Below are positions 7,805-48,209 of a DNA stretch of 64,000 nucleotides, in pieces. The notes under the pieces were generated by a model that had not been told where the DNA came from, ran no database searches, and saw only the letters and a list, made by a program, of their open reading frames with translations. Both the position numbers and the translations under genes were made by a program. This stretch comes from an uncultured Candidatus Saccharibacteria bacterium (lineage in GTDB: Bacteria; Patescibacteriota; Minisyncoccia; Phycocordibacterales; CSBR16-119), in assembly GCA_964355515.1 (NCBI GenBank), contig CAYHDV010000001.1:26544-90543 (forward strand), in the 5' to 3' direction. Positions within the stretch are counted from its first letter, which is position 1; the number at the start of each line of letters is the position of its first letter.

Positions 7805-10207
7805 TCAATGAGATTCTGTCTTCACGACAGTGTCCCCATTTCTCCAAATCACAATCTGATTGCCAAAGCTTACAGTGTGCGTCTGGAGGTCACGAAGCAA
7901 CACTCCTTGCCCAATCCTTGAACCAATGGTGCTGTAGACATCACCCACGATAAGTGGGTTTTGCCTGACAATCTCCTCGATTCCGTTTGGTGGAGTTGGT
8001 GAGTTAAGGGTTGTGAAGTAAAAAACTCCATAACTAGACTCATAAACTCCTGCCACGTAGAAATCAAGTTCAAAGAAAATGTTTTGTCCATCAGGCAAAT
8101 CGGCCAAATGGAAATTCATCGGCTGGTTTGCATTCAAGAGCAATATTGGATCAAGCGATTCTCCTGTTTGTCCAAGTGGATACCATCTCATCACGCAAGT
8201 GACTTGTGCCAATCCATGTGGATCGGCCCAGACTTGAATAATCCCCGCGGTTGAATCCACTACCAGCTCCTGCCATCCCAGATACTCTACTGGCCCCAAA
8301 ACTGGAGGCTCAACATATTCCGGAAGTGCCTGACTAAATGTCGGACTTTCCACCCAGCCACCTTCGGCATTTATGTAGATGATCCGATAATAAACCGAAT
8401 CTTCTTCTGCCTGAACGTAGGGCCAGATGTCAGCATGTGCCGTGTATGAACCAATACTTGGTGTTGCCACCGTATCTTGATTCGAAAGTGGACTTGCAAG
8501 AGTCGCAAGATTCTCACTTAGTCTCAAGTAAGCACTTGCACCATTGAGACTCATTGGATTAGCCAAAAAATCAATTTCAGCAATCCAGGTGATCTCAGAC
8601 CATGTTATTGGCATAAGATTTACCACAGGCTGACCAGGTGTCGGCATGGTCGTAAAAGTCCATACCATAGTCCTATCAGTATGAGGAGAAAGTGAATCTT
8701 TCCCCACCACTGTCACACGGTATTCTGTACCGTTCGCAAGACTTGAGTATGCCACCGATTGATTAAGCGTTCCACTTGCGTCATAGAAGTTTTGACTTGA
8801 GATCAGTCCGGGGTTTAACCCGCTTAATTGCTCAAGCTCTACCTCTGCGTTCACTCCTCCAACATTTATCGAGCGGTCAACCAACAGATTGAAACCATAA
8901 CTCACCGCAGTTACCACAGGACCGGTAGATGAAATATCCACAAGTCCGGGTTCATACATGGTGATGTAGTAGGTCCAAGTCTCGGTGGATCCATCTATCG
9001 CTCGCGTGAGTGTGATGGTGACCATCTCGGTCGATCCCGGTGTCAAATTTGTCACCGTGACATCGACAGTATCAAGGCCCATAGTCGCAATTCCTCCCGG
9101 AAAGTTCAAATTTTCCTGAGGAAAGTTCACCACTACATTGCTTGGTCCTCCATCCGAATATGTCGGAATGTGGAGCTCCACTTCGTGAAGACCTGTGCTG
9201 TCATGAGTCACCTGTCCGATAGACAAGTCATCCAAATCAGCCGTGGTCACACTCAGTGTTGCACTTGCCGTACCTCCAGCATTTGTTGCTATGATTTGCC
9301 ATGTGTGCACTGTCCCGAATCCTAGCCCAGGAAGAGTGTACGAGCCAATAGCTGTGTCAACAGTCGTGTTGGTATACACAGAAACTCCATCAGCAAGCAA
9401 ATTGTAGCTTGTAGTGTTTGTCCCGTTCCCAATAACTGTGAACTCTACTTCCTGTGTACTACTTGTCGCTGTTAGCGAATCAAGATAGACAAGTGGCACA
9501 GTCACTGCTCCTGTTGTAAAGGTTAAAACTGGACTCGTAAAGAGTACAATCCCACCTCCAGCATTTGCTCTGACACGTCCTGTATAGGTCGTATTCGGTT
9601 GGCAGTTTGTGATGACAATACTTTTGTCATGTTGAACCCCAACCTCATACAACTGAGTGGCGACGATTCCTCCTGGTCCAGATTGCTGAACAAAGGAAAA
9701 CATTGCACCGCTCTGCCCATCCAGAGAGTCGATGTGGATGGTCGCACCACCAGAGGTGGTGTCCGTCACACTGTGACCCCATGAAGCTGGTATGCCCAAA
9801 TAAAAGGTCGTTGAATCCGTGTGAGTAAGTGATGTGTGCATATCAATTACGTTCCATCCCCCACCCGTTGTATCAACAATCTCTGTAACCACGACCATCT
9901 CAAGGACAGTATTTTCCGTGTTTACATCAAATACCATTGTTTGTGGGATTTGAAGCCCGTAACCAAGCATGAGGCTATCAACTGACACAATTGTATCACC
10001 ATCAAGTTTGATGCCCACCCCAAAAGAGTTTGATACCAATCCATTTTGAAGGAGATTGATAGCAGTGATTTCCGTGTTGATTTTGATCACCCACGGAGTA
10101 GTCACTTGAGTTCCAGTGATTTCTGCAAAAGCGACCGGGGTCACCTGAGCAGACAGATTAAACGCCATCCCTAGGACGGCTAGCGCAATAATGATTGTTT
10201 TTTTCAT
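7805..10207 (-). CDS. Large secreted Thr/Ser/Gly/Val-rich protein with repetitive beta-rich (Ig/FN3-like) segments; likely cell-surface protein
   Basis: 800 aa with N-terminal signal peptide MKKTIIIALAVLGMAFNLSAQ. Markedly higher GC than its surroundings, and low-complexity T/S-rich repeats. Confidence 0.6.
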   Translation of the reverse strand: MKKTIIIALAVLGMAFNLSAQVTPVAFAEITGTQVTTPWVIKINTEITAINLLQNGLVSNSFGVGIKLDGDTIVSVDSLMLGYGLQIPQTMVFDVNTENTVLEMVVVTEIVDTTGGGWNVIDMHTSLTHTDSTTFYLGIPASWGHSVTDTTSGGATIHIDSLDGQSGAMFSFVQQSGPGGIVATQLYEVGVQHDKSIVITNCQPNTTYTGRVRANAGGGIVLFTSPVLTFTTGAVTVPLVYLDSLTATSSTQEVEFTVIGNGTNTTSYNLLADGVSVYTNTTVDTAIGSYTLPGLGFGTVHTWQIIATNAGGTASATLSVTTADLDDLSIGQVTHDSTGLHEVELHIPTYSDGGPSNVVVNFPQENLNFPGGIATMGLDTVDVTVTNLTPGSTEMVTITLTRAIDGSTETWTYYITMYEPGLVDISSTGPVVTAVSYGFNLLVDRSINVGGVNAEVELEQLSGLNPGLISSQNFYDASGTLNQSVAYSSLANGTEYRVTVVGKDSLSPHTDRTMVWTFTTMPTPGQPVVNLMPITWSEITWIAEIDFLANPMSLNGASAYLRLSENLATLASPLSNQDTVATPSIGSYTAHADIWPYVQAEEDSVYYRIIYINAEGGWVESPTFSQALPEYVEPPVLGPVEYLGWQELVVDSTAGIIQVWADPHGLAQVTCVMRWYPLGQTGESLDPILLLNANQPMNFHLADLPDGQNIFFELDFYVAGVYESSYGVFYFTTLNSPTPPNGIEEIVRQNPLIVGDVYSTIGSRIGQGVLLRDLQTHTVSFGNQIVIWRNGDTVVKTESH

Positions 10208-10318
10208 TTTCTTCGTTTTGTTGAATTGTGAGGTACTATTTTGTTTGACTTAAACCTACCATAAACTTGACAAATAGTCAATATGTATTCAAAAACTCAT
10301 TTTTGGTAAACTGGGCAG

Positions 10319-11005
10319 ATGAAAATTCATAGATTTTTTGTCGATTTGCCATATGAGACGGACGAGCTGATTATTTCTGACAAAGAATTGGTTCACCAAA
10401 TGAATAATGTACTCAAACTCAAATCTGGAGAATTTGTAGAGCTTTTTGATGGTTCAGGTAGTGCCTTTCTAGGTGAAATAAGTAGTGTCTCAAAAAAATC
10501 TGTAGAAATTAAAAATGGGGAAATTAAAAAAGTGGCAGATACTCGAAAAGAAATTTTCGCCTATATTCCCCTTCTACGCCGAACAAACACAGAACTTATA
10601 ATCCAAAAACTCACCGAGCTTGGAATCAAAAATATAATCCCCATCAAAACAGATAGAACAATCAAGTCCGATGTGAATCAAGAGAGGCTAAAGAAAATCT
10701 CGATAGAAGCCACCGAACAATCCGGACAATACTTCCTCACCAATATCAGCGAACCACTCAAGCTCAAAGAGGCTCTCGAGAGAGCCTCTGGTACAGATAT
10801 ATTTGTTCTAGATATGGGAAATGATTCTTTCCGAAACCATAAGCGCACCTATCCTCTATCATTTTTTGTTGGGCCTGAAGGTGGCTGGACAGATGAAGAG
10901 CGAGAGCTGTTTAGAAACTCTGGCGCAAAGATCGTAACACTCACAGACACTGTCCTACGAGGAGAAACTGCTGTTATCCTCGCGGGTTATGAAGCTCTTT
11001 ATTAA
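10319..11005 (+). CDS. rsmE: 16S rRNA (uracil1498-N3)-methyltransferase RsmE
   Basis: 228 aa. MKIHRFFVD N-terminus and C-terminal SPOUT domain (FFVGPEGGWTDEE). Confidence 0.8.
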   Translation: MKIHRFFVDLPYETDELIISDKELVHQMNNVLKLKSGEFVELFDGSGSAFLGEISSVSKKSVEIKNGEIKKVADTRKEIFAYIPLLRRTNTELIIQKLTELGIKNIIPIKTDRTIKSDVNQERLKKISIEATEQSGQYFLTNISEPLKLKEALERASGTDIFVLDMGNDSFRNHKRTYPLSFFVGPEGGWTDEERELFRNSGAKIVTLTDTVLRGETAVILAGYEALY

Positions 11006-11049
11006 AAACAAAAAACTCCCACAATAATCGTGAGAGAAAAATATCTTGT

Positions 11050-11155
11050 ATCGAAAAGCAAGAAACCAGTTGCTAGAATTCCAGTCATTGGACCAATTCT
11101 AGAGATTCACCTTGCGGTCATCCCAGTCCTCCCAAAGTTCGGGAACCTTGGACGC
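11050..11155 (-). repeat. DGR-like template repeat (TR) candidate: 106-nt intergenic copy
   Basis: 87% identical to 11525-11630. All 14 mismatches are T on the plus strand of this copy, meaning A on the minus (sense) strand. The other 92 positions are identical. Confidence 0.75.
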
Positions 11156-11524
11156 GGGAACTTTTGTATATCTATCCATCTGTACCACCGGTGCCAGATT
11201 CCTCCAACACCTGAATATTATTTGGGATCAAGAATCCACCAGATAGATATACCGACATATATTTTTTTGAAAGAATGCAATACAACCACGCTGTGATAAG
11301 CCCTGCCGACGCCAAGGCTTTGGCACGCAAACAGTGACCGACCATATTCTGGGTTGCAAGATTCTGATCGCAGGATGTAAAGCCTTGACCGTACATGCAT
11401 TACCACAATCATCCTTCAGTATATACAAAAAGACCCCTTGATTCAAATGCACAAAGTGCAAAGAACCAAAGGGTCGAAGTTAAAAAGCAACCAAGCAAAG
11501 ATTCAAAAGATCAAAGTTCAGTCG

Positions 11525-11630
11525 CGAAAAGCAAGAAACCAGCCGCTAGAATCCCAGCCACGGGACCAATCCTAGAGATCCACCCTGCGGCCAACCCAGT
11601 CCCCCCAAAGCCCGGGAACCTTGGACGCGG
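11525..11630 (-). repeat. DGR-like variable repeat (VR) candidate spanning the stop codon (11572-11574) of lipoprotein gene 11572..12027
   Basis: Direct repeat of 11050-11155. It carries N substitutions only where the TR has A in the sense strand. The TR frame is rich in AAT/AAC/GAC codons. Confidence 0.75.
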
Positions 11631-12027
11631 TGGTTTTAGAACCAAGTGCGATGATACTCATTTCGCGTTGCAATCTGGGATATTCGTTTCCCAGGGTGAG
11701 AAGTTCGCGAGCGGTTGCTGGCCGAAGTCCACGGACAACCATCTGTGCCACAATATCTTCAGAAGACATTTTTCGGTTAAAGTTGAGTAGGATGGCTTCA
11801 CGGGTCATGATTGTGTCTTTCTTGTCATCTCCACCTTTTTGGATAAAGGCATTGTTGGAAATACCAGAATTGACCAAGTCATAGTTTCCCATGGTCACAA
11901 GGTCATCAATTGACTTGGAATAGTCAATTATGACATTCATCCGTAATTCATCGATTTGGTTTCCTCCACCACAAGATGAGAGGATTGCCATTGCTGGCAA
12001 GAGGGCAAAAAGTGTTAGCTTTTTCAT
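11572..12027 (-). CDS. Small lipoprotein; putative DGR target protein (C-terminal 18 aa encoded by the VR)
   Basis: 151 aa with signal peptide and lipobox (AILSSC). C-terminus ...ASKVPGLWGDWVGRRVDL lies within the repeat. The TAG stop sits in the middle of the repeat. Confidence 0.7.
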   Translation of the reverse strand: MKKLTLFALLPAMAILSSCGGGNQIDELRMNVIIDYSKSIDDLVTMGNYDLVNSGISNNAFIQKGGDDKKDTIMTREAILLNFNRKMSSEDIVAQMVVRGLRPATARELLTLGNEYPRLQREMSIIALGSKTTASKVPGLWGDWVGRRVDL

Positions 12028-12046
12028 AATATTCGGTTTTGAAGTT

Positions 12047-12064
12047 TAAGTATATGTTAACATA
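12047..12064. promoter_or_regulatory. Perfect 18-bp palindrome GTATATGTTAACATATAC, 20 nt upstream of the lipoprotein start; operator candidate
   Basis: Exact inverted repeat overlapping the expected RBS/-10 region of gene 11572..12027. Confidence 0.4.
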
Positions 12065-12192
12065 TACGGGTATCTTTGTCAAGGATTATTGTGATGGCAT
12101 GTATTATATGTAGAAATGACAAGTTTTAGAACTTGCAAACCTTTCGACACTTGAGCTTTAACTTTTAAAATATTCACGGTTTTTTTGATTAG

Positions 12193-12245
12193 TGCGTAGC
12201 GTCTTTGCGAGGAGCTTGGCGACAAAGCAATCCAGGGTTCAATCA
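12193..12245. repeat. Short dispersed repeat, about 50 bp, copy A
   Basis: gcgtagcgtctttgcgaggagcttggcgacaaagcaatccagg matches the reverse complement of 20683-20735. Degenerate relatives at about 11297-11335, 12355-12400 and 12420-12478. Confidence 0.7.
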
Positions 12246-12519
12246 CCTTATTGTGAATGGGGTGCGTTTCAGTGTCCATAGATCCTGAACTAAATTCAGG
12301 ATGACAGGTATATTGTATAGTGTTGCCCATTTAGATCCTGAAATGTACCCTCACTTCGCTGTGGAGTACTAAGTCCTGGATTGCTTCGTGCCTCGCAATG
12401 ACGATACGTTTTATGAGTACTCTCTGGATTGATTCATGCCTCACTTCTTCGCCAAGGCTACGAAAGTGCACGGCGCAATGACAAAATTGTTTGCATGTGA
12501 CAAGCATTACTTTTAGATT

Positions 12520-13290
12520 TTAATCTTTCAGAAAAATTTTCTTTACTTGCTCAGTAGAAATCACTCTTGCATCCTCTACTTTATATTCTCCGATAGAAAT
12601 TCTCCGGAGAGCAGAAAGTGTAGCCGGTACGCCAAGTCTACTGCCTAGCTCGCGAGCAAGTGATCGAATATACGTCCCAGAACCAACATCAAAAGTGACC
12701 CTCAGAGCGACCTCACCCCAGCCCTGCCTGCCGGCAGGCAGGCCTCTCCTTATCAATGAGAGGGGGCTAGCCGATGACCCTTCTCGCTTCGAGTCGTTTC
12801 TTTTAATTTCTTTTAACTTTACCGAATGTACAAGCATTGTCTTTATCGGTACTTCGACCTCTTGGTCTTTGCGGGCATATTTGTACAAAGCCTTTCCATC
12901 TTTTTTGATAGCTGAATACACAGGCACAGCTATTTTTTGCTCACCTAGTAGAGTTTCTAATTTTTCCTTTATCTCTTTGTCTTCTAGAGCCGAAGCGTCC
13001 GCTTCCGCAATCACTTCCCCTTCCAAATCATCTGTTGTGGTTTGTTTACCCAACAGAATTTCTGCTTCATAGACTTTTGATTTGCCAATTAGCCCTGTGA
13101 GCTCCTTTGTCATCTTCCCCACACCCACGAGGATTAGTCCTGTAGCCCTCGGGTCGAGCGTCCCTGCGTGACCTATTTTGATTTTCGCATGTCCGGCTTC
13201 TTTGTACTCTCGTTTCAAAAAACGAATCACATCATACGATGTCACGCCAAATGGCTTGTCTATCAAAAGTAATTCCCCTTCTGGATTCAT
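12520..13290 (-). CDS. truB: tRNA pseudouridine(55) synthase TruB, carrying an in-frame roughly 30-aa insertion that contains a GC-rich palindrome
   Basis: 256 aa. LIDKPFGVTSYDVI, catalytic HAGTLDP, C-terminal GTYIRSLARELG. The insertion encodes ...SPLSLIRRGLPAGRQGWGEV. Confidence 0.85.
   Translation of the reverse strand: MNPEGELLLIDKPFGVTSYDVIRFLKREYKEAGHAKIKIGHAGTLDPRATGLILVGVGKMTKELTGLIGKSKVYEAEILLGKQTTTDDLEGEVIAEADASALEDKEIKEKLETLLGEQKIAVPVYSAIKKDGKALYKYARKDQEVEVPIKTMLVHSVKLKEIKRNDSKREGSSASPLSLIRRGLPAGRQGWGEVALRVTFDVGSGTYIRSLARELGSRLGVPATLSALRRISIGEYKVEDARVISTEQVKKIFLKD
12722..12752. repeat. GC-rich perfect palindrome CCTGCCTGCCGGCAGGCAGG embedded in-frame in truB
   Basis: Near-identical palindrome CCTGCCTGCCGGACAGGCAGG at 23519-23540 inside grpE. 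Confidence 0.7.
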
Positions 13291-20632: not shown

Positions 20633-20682
20633 CCTTTGTTGGTGCTTTTTTATTTCCAGTGATAAAAATTTCGTGAGAAATC

Positions 20683-20735
20683 CTGGATTGCCACGTCGCC
20701 AAGCTCCTCGCAAAGACGCTACGTGCGGTGATTAA
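20683..20735. repeat. Short dispersed repeat, copy B, immediately 3' of dnaK
   Basis: Reverse complement matches 12193-12245 (about 90% identity). Confidence 0.7.
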
Positions 20736-45627: not shown

Positions 45628-46179
45628 TTATACGGTCATTACTTCTACTTCTTTTTTCTGATAAATTTCTTCTAGTTTTTTGTTTGATTCATCTACTAAT
45701 TTTTGGAGATCATCTTTCAATCTCTTCATGTCATCTTCCCCCATATCTCCATCCTTTTTTTGTTTTTCTATTTCTTCGATAAAGACTTGCCTCTCTTTTC
45801 TTATGCTCACTCTAGCCTCTTCTAGCTTCCCTTTCAGAACTTTTGCAAGTTTGGCACGAGTTTCTTCGGTAAGCATGGGGAATATAACTCGAACCCCAGA
45901 GTCGCCAGATGCAGTAGAGAGTCCTAGTCCGCTATCAATAATAGCTTTTTCTACAGCTTTGATTTGTCCCTTGTCCCAAGGAGCGACAAGGAGTGTTCTA
46001 GAATCTTCGATAGAAATAGATCCTATATTTTTTATTGGTTGAGACGCCCCATACACTTCCGCATGGATAGAATCCAGAATAGCAGGACTTGCCATTCCTG
46101 TGTGTACTTGTGAATATTCTTTTTTAATCCATTCTTCAGTCCCCTGAAATGCTTGTTTCGCTTCATTTAAATTCATCAT
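45628..46179 (-). CDS. frr: Ribosome recycling factor
   Basis: 183 aa. ...RVSIRKERQ..., typical RRF length and charge pattern. Confidence 0.85.
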   Translation of the reverse strand: MMNLNEAKQAFQGTEEWIKKEYSQVHTGMASPAILDSIHAEVYGASQPIKNIGSISIEDSRTLLVAPWDKGQIKAVEKAIIDSGLGLSTASGDSGVRVIFPMLTEETRAKLAKVLKGKLEEARVSIRKERQVFIEEIEKQKKDGDMGEDDMKRLKDDLQKLVDESNKKLEEIYQKKEVEVMTV

Positions 46180-46303
46180 ATGGGTATAAGTATACTTGGG
46201 AGAGTCCCTTTTGGCAAAGTATTCAAATGACTCAGTATAAACTGAGTCATTTGAATTTGTATTTAAAAATCTGCGAATAAGTCGCAGATTCCTTTGAAAT
46301 TTA

Positions 46304-46525
46304 CTAATATACTCTTTTTTTCTTCATCGGCAGATGTATGTTTCTATACACTGAATTTAAATCATAAAAATTAGTTCTTCCTTCTTTTCCTGGGATTGGT
46401 TGTAAATTCTCACTCACAGAACCTAAATCATAGAAGTTAATCCTCGGGCGTGGTGTTCTTGCGTGCTTTGCCATGATATTTGATCTTTTATCTATTTTAA
46501 CATACTCAAAAAACCAACGCCACAT
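46304..46525 (-). CDS. Small basic hypothetical protein with internal NFYDL(G/N)SV repeat
   Basis: 73-aa ORF, likely starting at the internal MAKHARTPRP. Overlaps the 3' end of the holB-like gene by about 20 nt. Confidence 0.3.
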   Translation of the reverse strand: MWRWFFEYVKIDKRSNIMAKHARTPRPRINFYDLGSVSENLQPIPGKEGRTNFYDLNSVYRNIHLPMKKKRVY

Positions 46526-47156
46526 ACTCCGCTATCATTTTTGCTGGGGCACCTGGATTTGATAGCATCTGACGAAGTACGGGTAGCGCTTTCAAAAGTT
46601 CTTCATATTTATTGATATTCTTTTGACTATATGTGTATTCTTCCAAATCTCGAAAGAAGCTCAGCAGAGCATCTCTTTTTTCATCTGATTCTTCAATGAT
46701 TAAAAAAGTTTTTTCTACATATGCAATTCTTTCATGAGCTGGCATATTTACAAACTTTTCTGCCTCTCTTTTTTTACTCTCACTTTGGATAGTATATGTC
46801 TGCACCCTAGAGAGAATGGTTGGAAGCAATTCCAATTCATTTGGAATTATAATAAAAAATCTTTCTCCTTCTTTTACCTCTTCTATCATTTTTAGAAGAG
46901 CATTTTGGGCTTGGGTTGTAATAAATGCCCCCGAGCAAACAATTGTCTTTTGTCCAGTTACTGATGTTTGGTTATGGAAGTCTTGAAACAAACGAATATC
47001 GTCTATCGAGATTGTTGTTTTTTCTACAAGCAAGAAATCATCTCCTGTGTGTGGAGCGCGAGCGTCAGCGAGCGCTCCTAGTAGAAAACTAAGCCCTTCT
47101 CTCTGATCTCTTGTGTAGAGAACATAACTTCCTTCTTTTAAAATATTTATATTCAT
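46506..47156 (-). CDS. holB: DNA polymerase III delta'-like clamp-loader subunit (short form)
   Basis: LLKMIEEVKEGERFFIIIPNELELLPTILSRVQ matches the clamp-loader sensor-1/SRC region. Degenerate P-loop. Confidence 0.6.
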   Translation of the reverse strand: MNINILKEGSYVLYTRDQREGLSFLLGALADARAPHTGDDFLLVEKTTISIDDIRLFQDFHNQTSVTGQKTIVCSGAFITTQAQNALLKMIEEVKEGERFFIIIPNELELLPTILSRVQTYTIQSESKKREAEKFVNMPAHERIAYVEKTFLIIEESDEKRDALLSFFRDLEEYTYSQKNINKYEELLKALPVLRQMLSNPGAPAKMIAEYVALVF

Positions 47157-47195
47157 TTTATATTCTAGTTTTTTCAGAGGTTGAACCTCTGAAAA

Positions 47196-48209
47196 TCATC
47201 TTTTTGAAATAATGGATCTCTTGTATGTATCTAAGTGCTCAAGCGCAGCCCCAAGACCTTTTGCCACACAATATTCAGCATCATCAGCGAGTCGTGCCTT
47301 TACTCCAGTTTTCCTATACACAAGCTCCGGAAGATTTCGAAGTAGTGATGACCCACCTGTCATAATAATTCCCTGATCAATAATATCAGATGCCAATTCT
47401 GGAGGAGTCTCCTGCAAGACATCTTTGATAGCTCGAACGATAGCTTTTAGCTCCACATCAAGAGCCTTTACAATTTCATTTGTAGAAACCTGAGCGGTAC
47501 GAGGAAGACCTTGGATGAAGTCCCGACCCTTGATAGTTGTAGTCAGCTCTTCTTCCATATTTACAGCTGAACCAATTTTAATTTTTATATCTTCAGCAGT
47601 TTTGTCTCCAATAGCCAAGTTGAAAGTCTTTTTTATATAATCAGCAATAGCATGGTCTATCTTGTCCCCCGCCACCTTTACAGAAGTACATGCCACAATT
47701 CCCCCTAGAGAAATCACGGCCACGTCTGTTGTCCCCCCACCAATGTCCACTATCATATGCCCCCGTGCGTCATTTATAGGAATCCCTGCTCCAATAGCAG
47801 CAAGTACTGGCTCTTTCACAACAGAAGCTGACCTTGCTCCAGCTTTGATTGCCGCCTCCACTACAGCCCGCCTTTCAGTTGAAGTCACACCAGCTGGAAC
47901 AGATATCATTACATCTGGTTTAAAAAGTGAAAACTTCCCCAACACTTTATTCATAAAATACCTCAGCATTGCCTCTGTTACTCGATAATCAGCAATAACC
48001 CCATTTCTCATGGGACGATAAGCCACAATATTTTCTGGAGTTCGCCCTATCATATCTTTTGCCTCAATCCCAATAGCAAGAACCCTTTTATCATCCTCAG
48101 AAACAGCCACTACAGATGGTTCATTCAAAACAACCCCTCGCCCAGGCTCAAATACCAGAACATTCACTGTTCCAAGATCAATCCCTAGTTTTTTCGAGAA
48201 AAATGCCAT
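47196..48209 (-). CDS. mreB: Rod-shape determining protein MreB
   Basis: LGIDLGTVNVLVF, DIGGGTTDVAVISLGG, 337 aa. Confidence 0.9.
   Translation of the reverse strand: MAFFSKKLGIDLGTVNVLVFEPGRGVVLNEPSVVAVSEDDKRVLAIGIEAKDMIGRTPENIVAYRPMRNGVIADYRVTEAMLRYFMNKVLGKFSLFKPDVMISVPAGVTSTERRAVVEAAIKAGARSASVVKEPVLAAIGAGIPINDARGHMIVDIGGGTTDVAVISLGGIVACTSVKVAGDKIDHAIADYIKKTFNLAIGDKTAEDIKIKIGSAVNMEEELTTTIKGRDFIQGLPRTAQVSTNEIVKALDVELKAIVRAIKDVLQETPPELASDIIDQGIIMTGGSSLLRNLPELVYRKTGVKARLADDAEYCVAKGLGAALEHLDTYKRSIISKR

Follow-up and report, generated by a model that had tools for sequence, protein, structure and literature searches.

The minus strand of this Patescibacteria (CPR) genome, probably one of the Paceibacteria, carries what we read as a real target and template module of a diversity-generating retroelement (DGR), split from its reverse transcriptase (RT), which would be encoded elsewhere in the genome and act in trans. 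We put the probability of this reading at roughly 0.7. The window referred to throughout is the whole 64-kb stretch of DNA that was analysed. The first of the two units would be a small surface lipoprotein gene, whose C-terminal domain, predicted to adopt a C-type-lectin fold, ends in the variable repeat (VR). The second, lying downstream on the same strand, would be a separate small RNA gene consisting of a promoter-like site, a leader, the template repeat (TR) and a terminator hairpin. A DGR RT and its partner Avd, encoded outside the window, would copy the TR RNA into cDNA, misincorporating opposite adenines. The cDNA would then replace the VR by mutagenic retrohoming, so that the ligand-binding face of the lipoprotein could be rewritten at as many as 23 positions templated by adenines. 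In this lineage the TR would also have undergone a G>A change that converted a tryptophan codon (TGG) to TAG; a later round of retrohoming would have copied that A unchanged into the VR. The outcome would be an allele truncated at residue 151 and lacking its last conserved beta-strand.

The repeat pair and the target lipoprotein

Repeat search and base-by-base comparison reveal an ungapped direct repeat of 106 nt, at 11052–11157 and 11525–11630, offset by 473 nt. The preliminary description had the VR at its proper coordinates, while the intergenic copy, given there as 11050–11155, was set 2 nt too far to the left. The features of the locus are as follows.

11006–11036, minus strand: terminator-like hairpin (CTCTCACGATTATTGTGGGAG) and U-tract, 16 nt past the TR and abutting the convergent rsmE stop (z = -2.9)
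11052–11157, minus strand: TR, 106 nt with 23 adenines, intergenic
11099–11101, minus strand: TAG within the TR, TGG in the TRs of the related loci L017, L015 and L003
11158–11410, minus strand: leader of about 250 nt, non-coding, predicted to be structured, conserved across species, with a variable hairpin at about 11295–11337
11418–11446, minus strand: promoter-like TTGAAT-17-TATACT, candidate start of the TR transcript, from a consensus scan; it overlaps the preceding terminator, and the block is conserved in L015 and L003
11432–11475, minus strand: terminator of the target gene, a strong hairpin followed by a U-run, conserved in L015, L003, L005, L008 and L016
11525–11542, minus strand: candidate IMH/IMH* boundary, the A-free 18-nt 3' end of the VR (CTGGTTTCTTGCTTTTCG), identical to TR 11052–11069
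11525–11630, minus strand: VR, 106 nt, with 14 mismatches to the TR, all on TR adenines
11572–11574, minus strand: in-frame TAG within the VR, which costs the protein its last 17 residues and with them the conserved terminal beta-strand (WFLAFRD)
11572–12027, minus strand: target gene in its current reading, a 151-aa lipoprotein with signal peptide and lipobox LSSC, ending at the premature TAG
12054–12082, minus strand: promoter-like TTGACA-17-TAACAT with extended TG, from a consensus scan (10/12 matches), 27 nt upstream of the target ATG

How do the two copies differ? Read on the plus strand, each of the 14 mismatches is a T in the intergenic copy that has become C (12 times), G (once) or A (once) in the gene copy. 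On the sense (minus) strand, from TR to VR, this amounts to 12 A>G, one A>C and one A>T. Substitution has thus affected 14 of the 23 TR adenines and none of the 83 other positions; the hypergeometric probability that 14 of 14 mismatches should land on the 23 adenines among 106 positions is 7.7e-12. All but one of the 14 substitutions occupy codon position 1 or 2 of the gene frame, in codons AAT, AAC, GAC, GAA, GAG, GAT and AAG. The recomputed alignment, tabulated by template base, agrees in every count with the preliminary description, without a single substitution at a non-adenine position, and the codon positions bear out the AAY-type codons that it had reported at the variable sites. Since the mismatches are restricted to adenines (P of about 8e-12) and keep to the codon register, the intergenic copy is the template repeat and the gene copy is the variable repeat. 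That together they form the TR/VR pair of a DGR we regard as almost certain. The mechanism is that of an ordinary DGR, with adenine mutagenesis, a C-type-lectin (CLec) target and a C-terminal VR.

The window holds no other long repeat, and neither further copies of TR or VR nor matches to the non-adenine skeleton of the TR were found in it. Immediately after the A-free 3' segment the VR reads CGAC and the TR ATAC, a contrast also present in L003 and L015, and so in three species. A strong hairpin, terminator-like in appearance, starts about 50 nt past the VR. The gap between VR and TR measures 367 nt, in line with the earlier estimate of about 370 nt on the same strand, and beyond the TR the next gene is, as had been said, rsmE on the opposite strand (Pfam Methyltrans_RNA and PUA_4).

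Past the TAG, the reading frame of the target continues to a TGA at 11519–11521, directly beyond the end of the VR, and read through would give 168 codons. The homologues, of 168–206 aa, cover 100% of this read-through query, and all of them conserve the C-terminal W-F-L-A-F-R-D. Close homologues of the target are scarce, with 11 clusters only among 5.8 billion proteins; those clusters that bear a name come from metagenome-assembled genomes of Candidatus Paceibacterota/Pacebacteria. The protein carries a lipoprotein signal (LSSCGG) and has no Pfam match. An AlphaFold model of a full-length homologue (P0002, 74% identical), built on an alignment of 11 sequences, has a mean pLDDT of 82 and a pTM of 0.81, with its last strand at residues 163–169. 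It predicts the C-type-lectin-type fold that had been considered for the lipoprotein C-terminus, with the VR supplying the C-terminal portion of that domain, as in the variable proteins of the Mtd/TvpA type. The lipoprotein would have a role in ligand binding.

The CLec-like domain itself spans about 140 aa (residues ~29–169; window 11519–11943, minus strand). In a profile search about 5000 representative proteins match it at E <= 1e-3. It is often tandem or C-terminal, some proteins fuse it to Ser/Thr kinase, DnaJ or ankyrin repeats, and there is no Pfam model for it. It appears to be an unannotated family, and possibly one that is largely DGR-diversified.

Several features of the surroundings deserve mention. 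Just upstream of the lipoprotein gene, at 12195–12456, lies an element of about 260 nt bounded by inverted repeats, with arms CGTAGCGTCTTTGCGAGG…AAGCAATCCAGG. A 45-nt copy of it, 91% identical, is found 8 kb away at 20679–20723, and three independent short assemblies (L001, L002 and L017) all end at about 12172–12197, at this element, as expected for a multi-copy repeat of the REP/MITE type. Within truB (12520–13290, minus strand) there is a GC-rich palindromic stretch at 12700–12790 (cctgcctgccggcaggcagg), read in frame as SPLSLIRRGLPAGRQGWGEVAL; the rest of the gene being AT-rich, it has the look of an inserted element. On the other side, next to rsmE, an 800-aa secreted protein is encoded at 7805–10207 (minus strand); its sole Pfam match is a chance-level FN3-like one, and the G+C content of the region is 0.47 against about 0.40 in its surroundings.

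A nonsense codon shared by template and target

What is the consequence of the TAG that interrupts the VR? The current allele is cut at 151 of about 168 residues. The position is occupied by Trp in seven of ten homologues and also in the allele of a sister strain (P0012, 169 aa). Projected on the P0002 model, truncation at the TAG takes away the last strand and part of the strand before it, and the 151-aa product is, on this model, probably non-functional. The 47 nt of the VR that lie past the TAG include six of the 14 substituted adenines, with the codon register unchanged. The VR had previously been described as the 3' end of the lipoprotein gene; it does stand at the end of the gene, while the current open reading frame stops at the TAG in mid-VR. 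The TAG was already present in the codon string then given, and had gone unflagged as a truncating stop.

Might TAG be a sense codon here? An alternative genetic code was ruled out on three counts: seven other well-defined genes, among 62, end in TAG; code 11 gives a coding density of 85% for the window; and TGG is found at this codon in the sister strain and in other relatives. By these comparisons we take TAG to be a true stop codon in this organism.

The sister strain L017, near-identical and derived from a different sequencing run, shows 7 differences from the window in the 542 nt upstream of the VR. Its TR matches that of the window except for one base, which makes TGG of TAG. Since TGG is likewise found in the TRs of L015 and L003, which are more distant, we regard TGG as ancestral in the TR and the window TR as the bearer of a lineage-specific G>A. 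The adenine in question falls in a predicted intra-TR hairpin, where it would convert a G.U pair to A-U (alignment columns 340/365). This TR-specific TAG occurs in its cognate VR only. Because TAG is common to the window TR and VR, with TGG in L017, the window VR is best read as written after the TR mutation; that is, TR-to-VR copying would post-date the G>A. Gene conversion was considered as a source of the TAG and is unlikely, as the VR is substituted at adenine sites on either side of the TAG adenine, 7 nt upstream of it and 2 nt downstream.

The VR of L017 bears the same signature. Against its own TR it has 17 mismatches, all 17 at adenines (12 to G, 4 to C, 1 to T). Compared with the window VR it differs at 14 positions, which are 13 TR-adenine sites and the TAG/TGG site. 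Since the TRs differ by one nucleotide and the VRs at 13 TR-adenine sites, both VRs would have been written from essentially the same TR after the two strains split. Between strains, then, one finds directional transfer from TR to VR together with turnover of the VR. The simplest history would run from the strain split, through the G>A in the window TR, to at least one mutagenic retrohoming event that carried the new A across unchanged. We consider it very probable that an RT encoded beyond the window rewrites the module, or did so until very recently.

Two VR alleles only are known for this strain group. The window VR recurs unchanged in three other contigs, two of which are L001 and L002 (four contigs carry the protein), and TR and TAG are identical there too; the contigs with the window allele give no sign of ongoing diversification in the populations from which they come, and the persistence of the TAG across them fits a module that is no longer cycling. 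A further point against our reading is the skewed spectrum of the window changes, of which 12 out of 14 are A>G. In the two observed VRs (window and L017) 61–77% of the adenines are substituted. As the new A now belongs to the template adenines that are open to mutation, another round of retrohoming would in many cases turn the TAG back into a sense codon (TGG, TCG or TTG). Our literature search turned up no earlier case of a nonsense codon passed on from TR to VR.

One segment of the spacer between VR and TR, 11295–11337, has accumulated 16 substitutions in 42 nt relative to L017, the rest of the spacer being about 99% identical. These substitutions are not adenine-specific, and L003 lacks the segment. 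In the predicted structure of the TR leader it forms part of a hairpin, whose pairing is mostly kept, and it may represent a fast-evolving stem-loop or a recombination patch. As a stand-alone hairpin the patch was rejected, single-sequence folds being no better than those of shuffles; it fits the alignment-based helix instead.

The template unit, its relatives and the missing reverse transcriptase

Is the TR an RNA gene in its own right? Upstream, the target gene appears to be closed off by its own terminator hairpin: the 126-nt stretch that holds it (11400–11525) folds at -35.7 kcal/mol (z = -4.85). Downstream of the TR, L003, L015 and L014 have a hairpin at the same place as the window, the fold being significant only in L003 (z = -6.2, as against -0.45 in L015 and +0.33 in L014). 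The intervening spacer is conserved across species whose target proteins are just 54–73% identical. An Avd or other protein encoded in it was considered and rejected: a 74-aa open reading frame is called there in some assemblies and is broken in L015 and L003. The consensus fold of leader and TR (RNAalifold, four sequences) has 94% of cells paired. Ten pairs are changed on both sides, compared with 3.9 +/- 1.7 in shuffles and 0–3 in slid controls, in a set of four sequences of which two are nearly identical and with a structure derived from the same alignment; the covariation of leader and TR is thus suggestive only. Rfam returned chance-level matches only on 10900–12600. With its promoter-like site, structured leader, TR and terminator, the unit has the make-up of an independent small RNA gene, and we infer that it is one. 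For a TR of this kind, action of RT and Avd in trans would be natural for this group of DGRs.

Where, then, is the RT? The window reaches 11 kb to one side of the module and 52 kb to the other. It contains no open reading frame of the YxDD RT type, apart from a DnaB-like YIDD. By tblastn, the RT and Avd of L014 found nothing in the 64-kb window better than E = 0.6, and its bAvd nothing better than E = 1.1; a six-frame hmmsearch (--max) of the same window with a profile of 60 CPR DGR RTs gave a best E of 0.4. Motif scan, tblastn and hmmsearch thus agree with the earlier statement that the window has neither RT nor Avd. No bAvd was recognized among five small window open reading frames scanned against Pfam, and no degenerate remnant of RT or Avd lies beside the TR in the window or in L003. 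Within the 64 kb, therefore, no RT accompanies the TR, and no Avd accompanies an RT or the TR.

A complete DGR of the same family exists in L014. Its target (P0011) is 36% identical to that of the window and its TR lies at the same 473-nt offset, followed by bAvd (PF22296, E 5e-14), on the opposite strand between TR and RT, and by an RT of the RVT_1 family with the DGR hallmarks IGLPLGNLTSQ (LGNLTSQ) and YADD. Since avd is antisense between TR and RT, even in L014 the TR RNA would not be co-transcribed with the RT. This homologue, taken with the adenine-only pattern, the target fold and the strain comparison, supports the DGR interpretation offered by the preliminary description.

Target and TR without RT are found in the window, L017, L015 and L003/L004, and probably also on a 509-kb JGI contig (the P0003 contig), where a gap of 530 nt follows the gene. 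In L003/L004 the offset from VR to TR is 444 and every core mismatch is at A, the L003 substitutions including six to T and two to C; L015 retains a TR/VR pair with three non-A mismatches. Within 10 kb on either side of L003 there is neither RVT_1 nor bAvd, and the gene list for 10 kb on either side of P0003 includes no RT or Avd. At the target-only loci (L005/L018 and L008–L013) homology stops about 90 nt past the VR, after the gene's terminator hairpin.

The target-only homologues comprise P0009 (L008–L013) and P0007 (L005/L006/L018), whose flanking sequence, as far as it extends, contains no TR. Ten contigs, from several samples, encode one and the same P0009 protein. Either an unseen DGR uses these homologues as remote targets, or they are relics that have become frozen.

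The module does not occupy a fixed site. In the window it stands between rsmE and truB; on the P0003 contig, which is otherwise syntenic with the window at 39–48 kb, it stands between holB and frr; and in L003 (module 9177–9863, context 8684–11452) it interrupts the ribosomal spc operon, with rplE and rpsH on either side. The gene order on the P0003 contig, mreB-holB-[module]-frr-M50 peptidase-M23-sigma70, is that of the window at 39–48 kb (window 45628–48209). In the window, the holB-frr gap measures 326 nt and has a possible small open reading frame, the module being 35 kb away; a cassette remnant was sought in that gap and none was found. Directly upstream of the L003 module lies a 228-aa open reading frame that matches the IS200-like Y1 transposase family (PF01797) at 22 bits, against a cut-off of 23; its presence beside the module hints at how the module moves.

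A scan for the family-level TR/VR pattern matched only two genomes among GTDB representatives, neither of which has a second, RT-linked copy of the TR, and a single JGI contig among metagenome contigs; 2.9 million viral contigs gave no match. The RT of L014 has more than 8000 close relatives among CPR RTs, too many for the cognate enzyme to be singled out.

Explanations, known systems and meaning

Of the readings that could account for a TR and VR so placed, we favour an RT still present elsewhere in the genome and acting in trans; that part of the account seems to us likely. More tentative, and in our view somewhat short of an even chance, is the broader proposal of a split DGR, in which the target and its self-contained TR-RNA gene would constitute a relocatable module, found at different chromosomal sites in otherwise syntenic genomes and rewritten by an RT-Avd encoded more than 50 kb away.

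The strongest competitor is a recently orphaned cassette, in which RT and Avd have been lost, TR and VR are frozen, and the TAG-truncated gene is turning into a pseudogene. Such a cassette would be expected to look much as the window does, with no RT or Avd in 64 kb, a VR identical in the other contigs that have the window allele, and a TAG null allele retained in every contig carrying it. Target-only relatives, one with a protein identical across 10 contigs, indicate moreover that, in this family, components of the system do disappear or become frozen. Yet any loss of the RT must have been very recent, since TR and VR differ at none of 83 non-adenine positions and the TR is one base removed from that of the sister strain, and at least one retrohoming event would be later than the TR mutation. 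Moreover, the RT-less layout is kept in separate species, L003 (cleanly adenine-only) and L015 (with its three non-A mismatches), which is hard to reconcile with independent recent losses. We therefore consider orphaning unlikely, although it is the most serious of the alternatives.

Could the RT and Avd instead belong to a mobile element, a prophage or plasmid that is sometimes in the cell, the module being rewritten only at those times? A VR that is static in some populations would fit, as would modules without an RT in several genomes, and PMC5758913, with reference to experiments, describes avd-TR-brt acting in trans from a plasmid. It is nevertheless highly improbable, given that the family-level pattern found no match among the viral contigs and that remote targets are characteristic of non-phage DGRs (Wu et al., PMC5758913). 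That the locus is not a DGR at all, the repeats being a segmental duplication diverged by chance or by a strand-specific process such as adenine deamination (A>G), would suit the 12 A>G transitions among 14 changes, but is effectively refuted by the A>C and A>T changes, more frequent in L017 and L003 than in the window, by the single codon register and a chance of about 8e-12, by a target with the fold of DGR variable proteins, and by the L014 homologue, which adjoins bAvd and a DGR RT at the same VR-TR spacing.

How does the favoured arrangement, with the RT acting from a distance, compare with known systems? In the DGR of Treponema denticola (TvpA and remote targets) the TR stays with the RT and only the VRs are remote, the targets lying more than 100 kb away. 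In the window, by contrast, TR and VR stay together, and the part not found nearby is the RT. In Trichodesmium erythraeum the TR has a promoter of its own and gives rise to a distinct small RNA, abundant and 265 nt long (PMC4143802), a precedent for a TR as a separate RNA gene, whereas transcription of the window TR is inferred only. The Trichodesmium TR adjoins its RT gene and supplies 12 VRs at remote sites, while that of the window sits beside a single VR, away from any RT. The DGR of Bordetella phage BPP-1 comprises the VR in mtd, the TR, avd and brt, while the window lacks avd and brt both beside the TR and in its 64 kb. In BPP-1 a long spacer RNA extends into the RT gene (see also PMC3240598), where the window has a terminator hairpin 16 nt past the TR. 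Unlike BPP-1, the window also has a conserved RNA, predicted to be structured, 5' of its TR, and it belongs to a CPR bacterium where BPP-1 is a phage. DGRs are abundant in CPR bacteria, and the window resembles those of clade 2 (Roux et al. 2021), of which L014 is an example, with the same target family (36% identity), the 473-nt offset and a hairpin past the TR; L014 has bAvd and RT directly after the TR, whereas the window, L003 and the P0003 contig have neither nearby.

What sets the module apart is which part is detached: a TR with its VR, RT and Avd being absent from the neighbourhood, in at least three species. Large surveys of DGRs start from the RT and then look nearby for TR and VR (PMC5758913, PMC8144416), and Roux et al. 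state that VRs not adjoining the RT are missed (PMC8144416). Because the surveys are anchored on the RT in this way, a module such as that of the window would not be listed in them. Our literature search found no description of stand-alone TR-VR modules, which is not proof that none exists. Trans-complementation of avd-TR-brt has, according to PMC5758913, been shown experimentally.

If a TR/VR module distant from any RT is being rewritten, the RT-Avd complex can recognize TR RNAs entirely in trans, and hypervariable loci of CPR bacteria are under-counted; as the RNA element recognized by an RT of this kind, the conserved leader would be a concrete candidate. Should the split arrangement prove true, one RT could serve several unrelated templates, and the TAG mutation in the template would make the target an on/off allele dependent on retrohoming. 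A nonsense mutation shared by TR and VR acts as a natural tracer, telling in which direction information has flowed and how recently. The same mutation exposes a cost of the system, an error in the template having been propagated into a protein gene.
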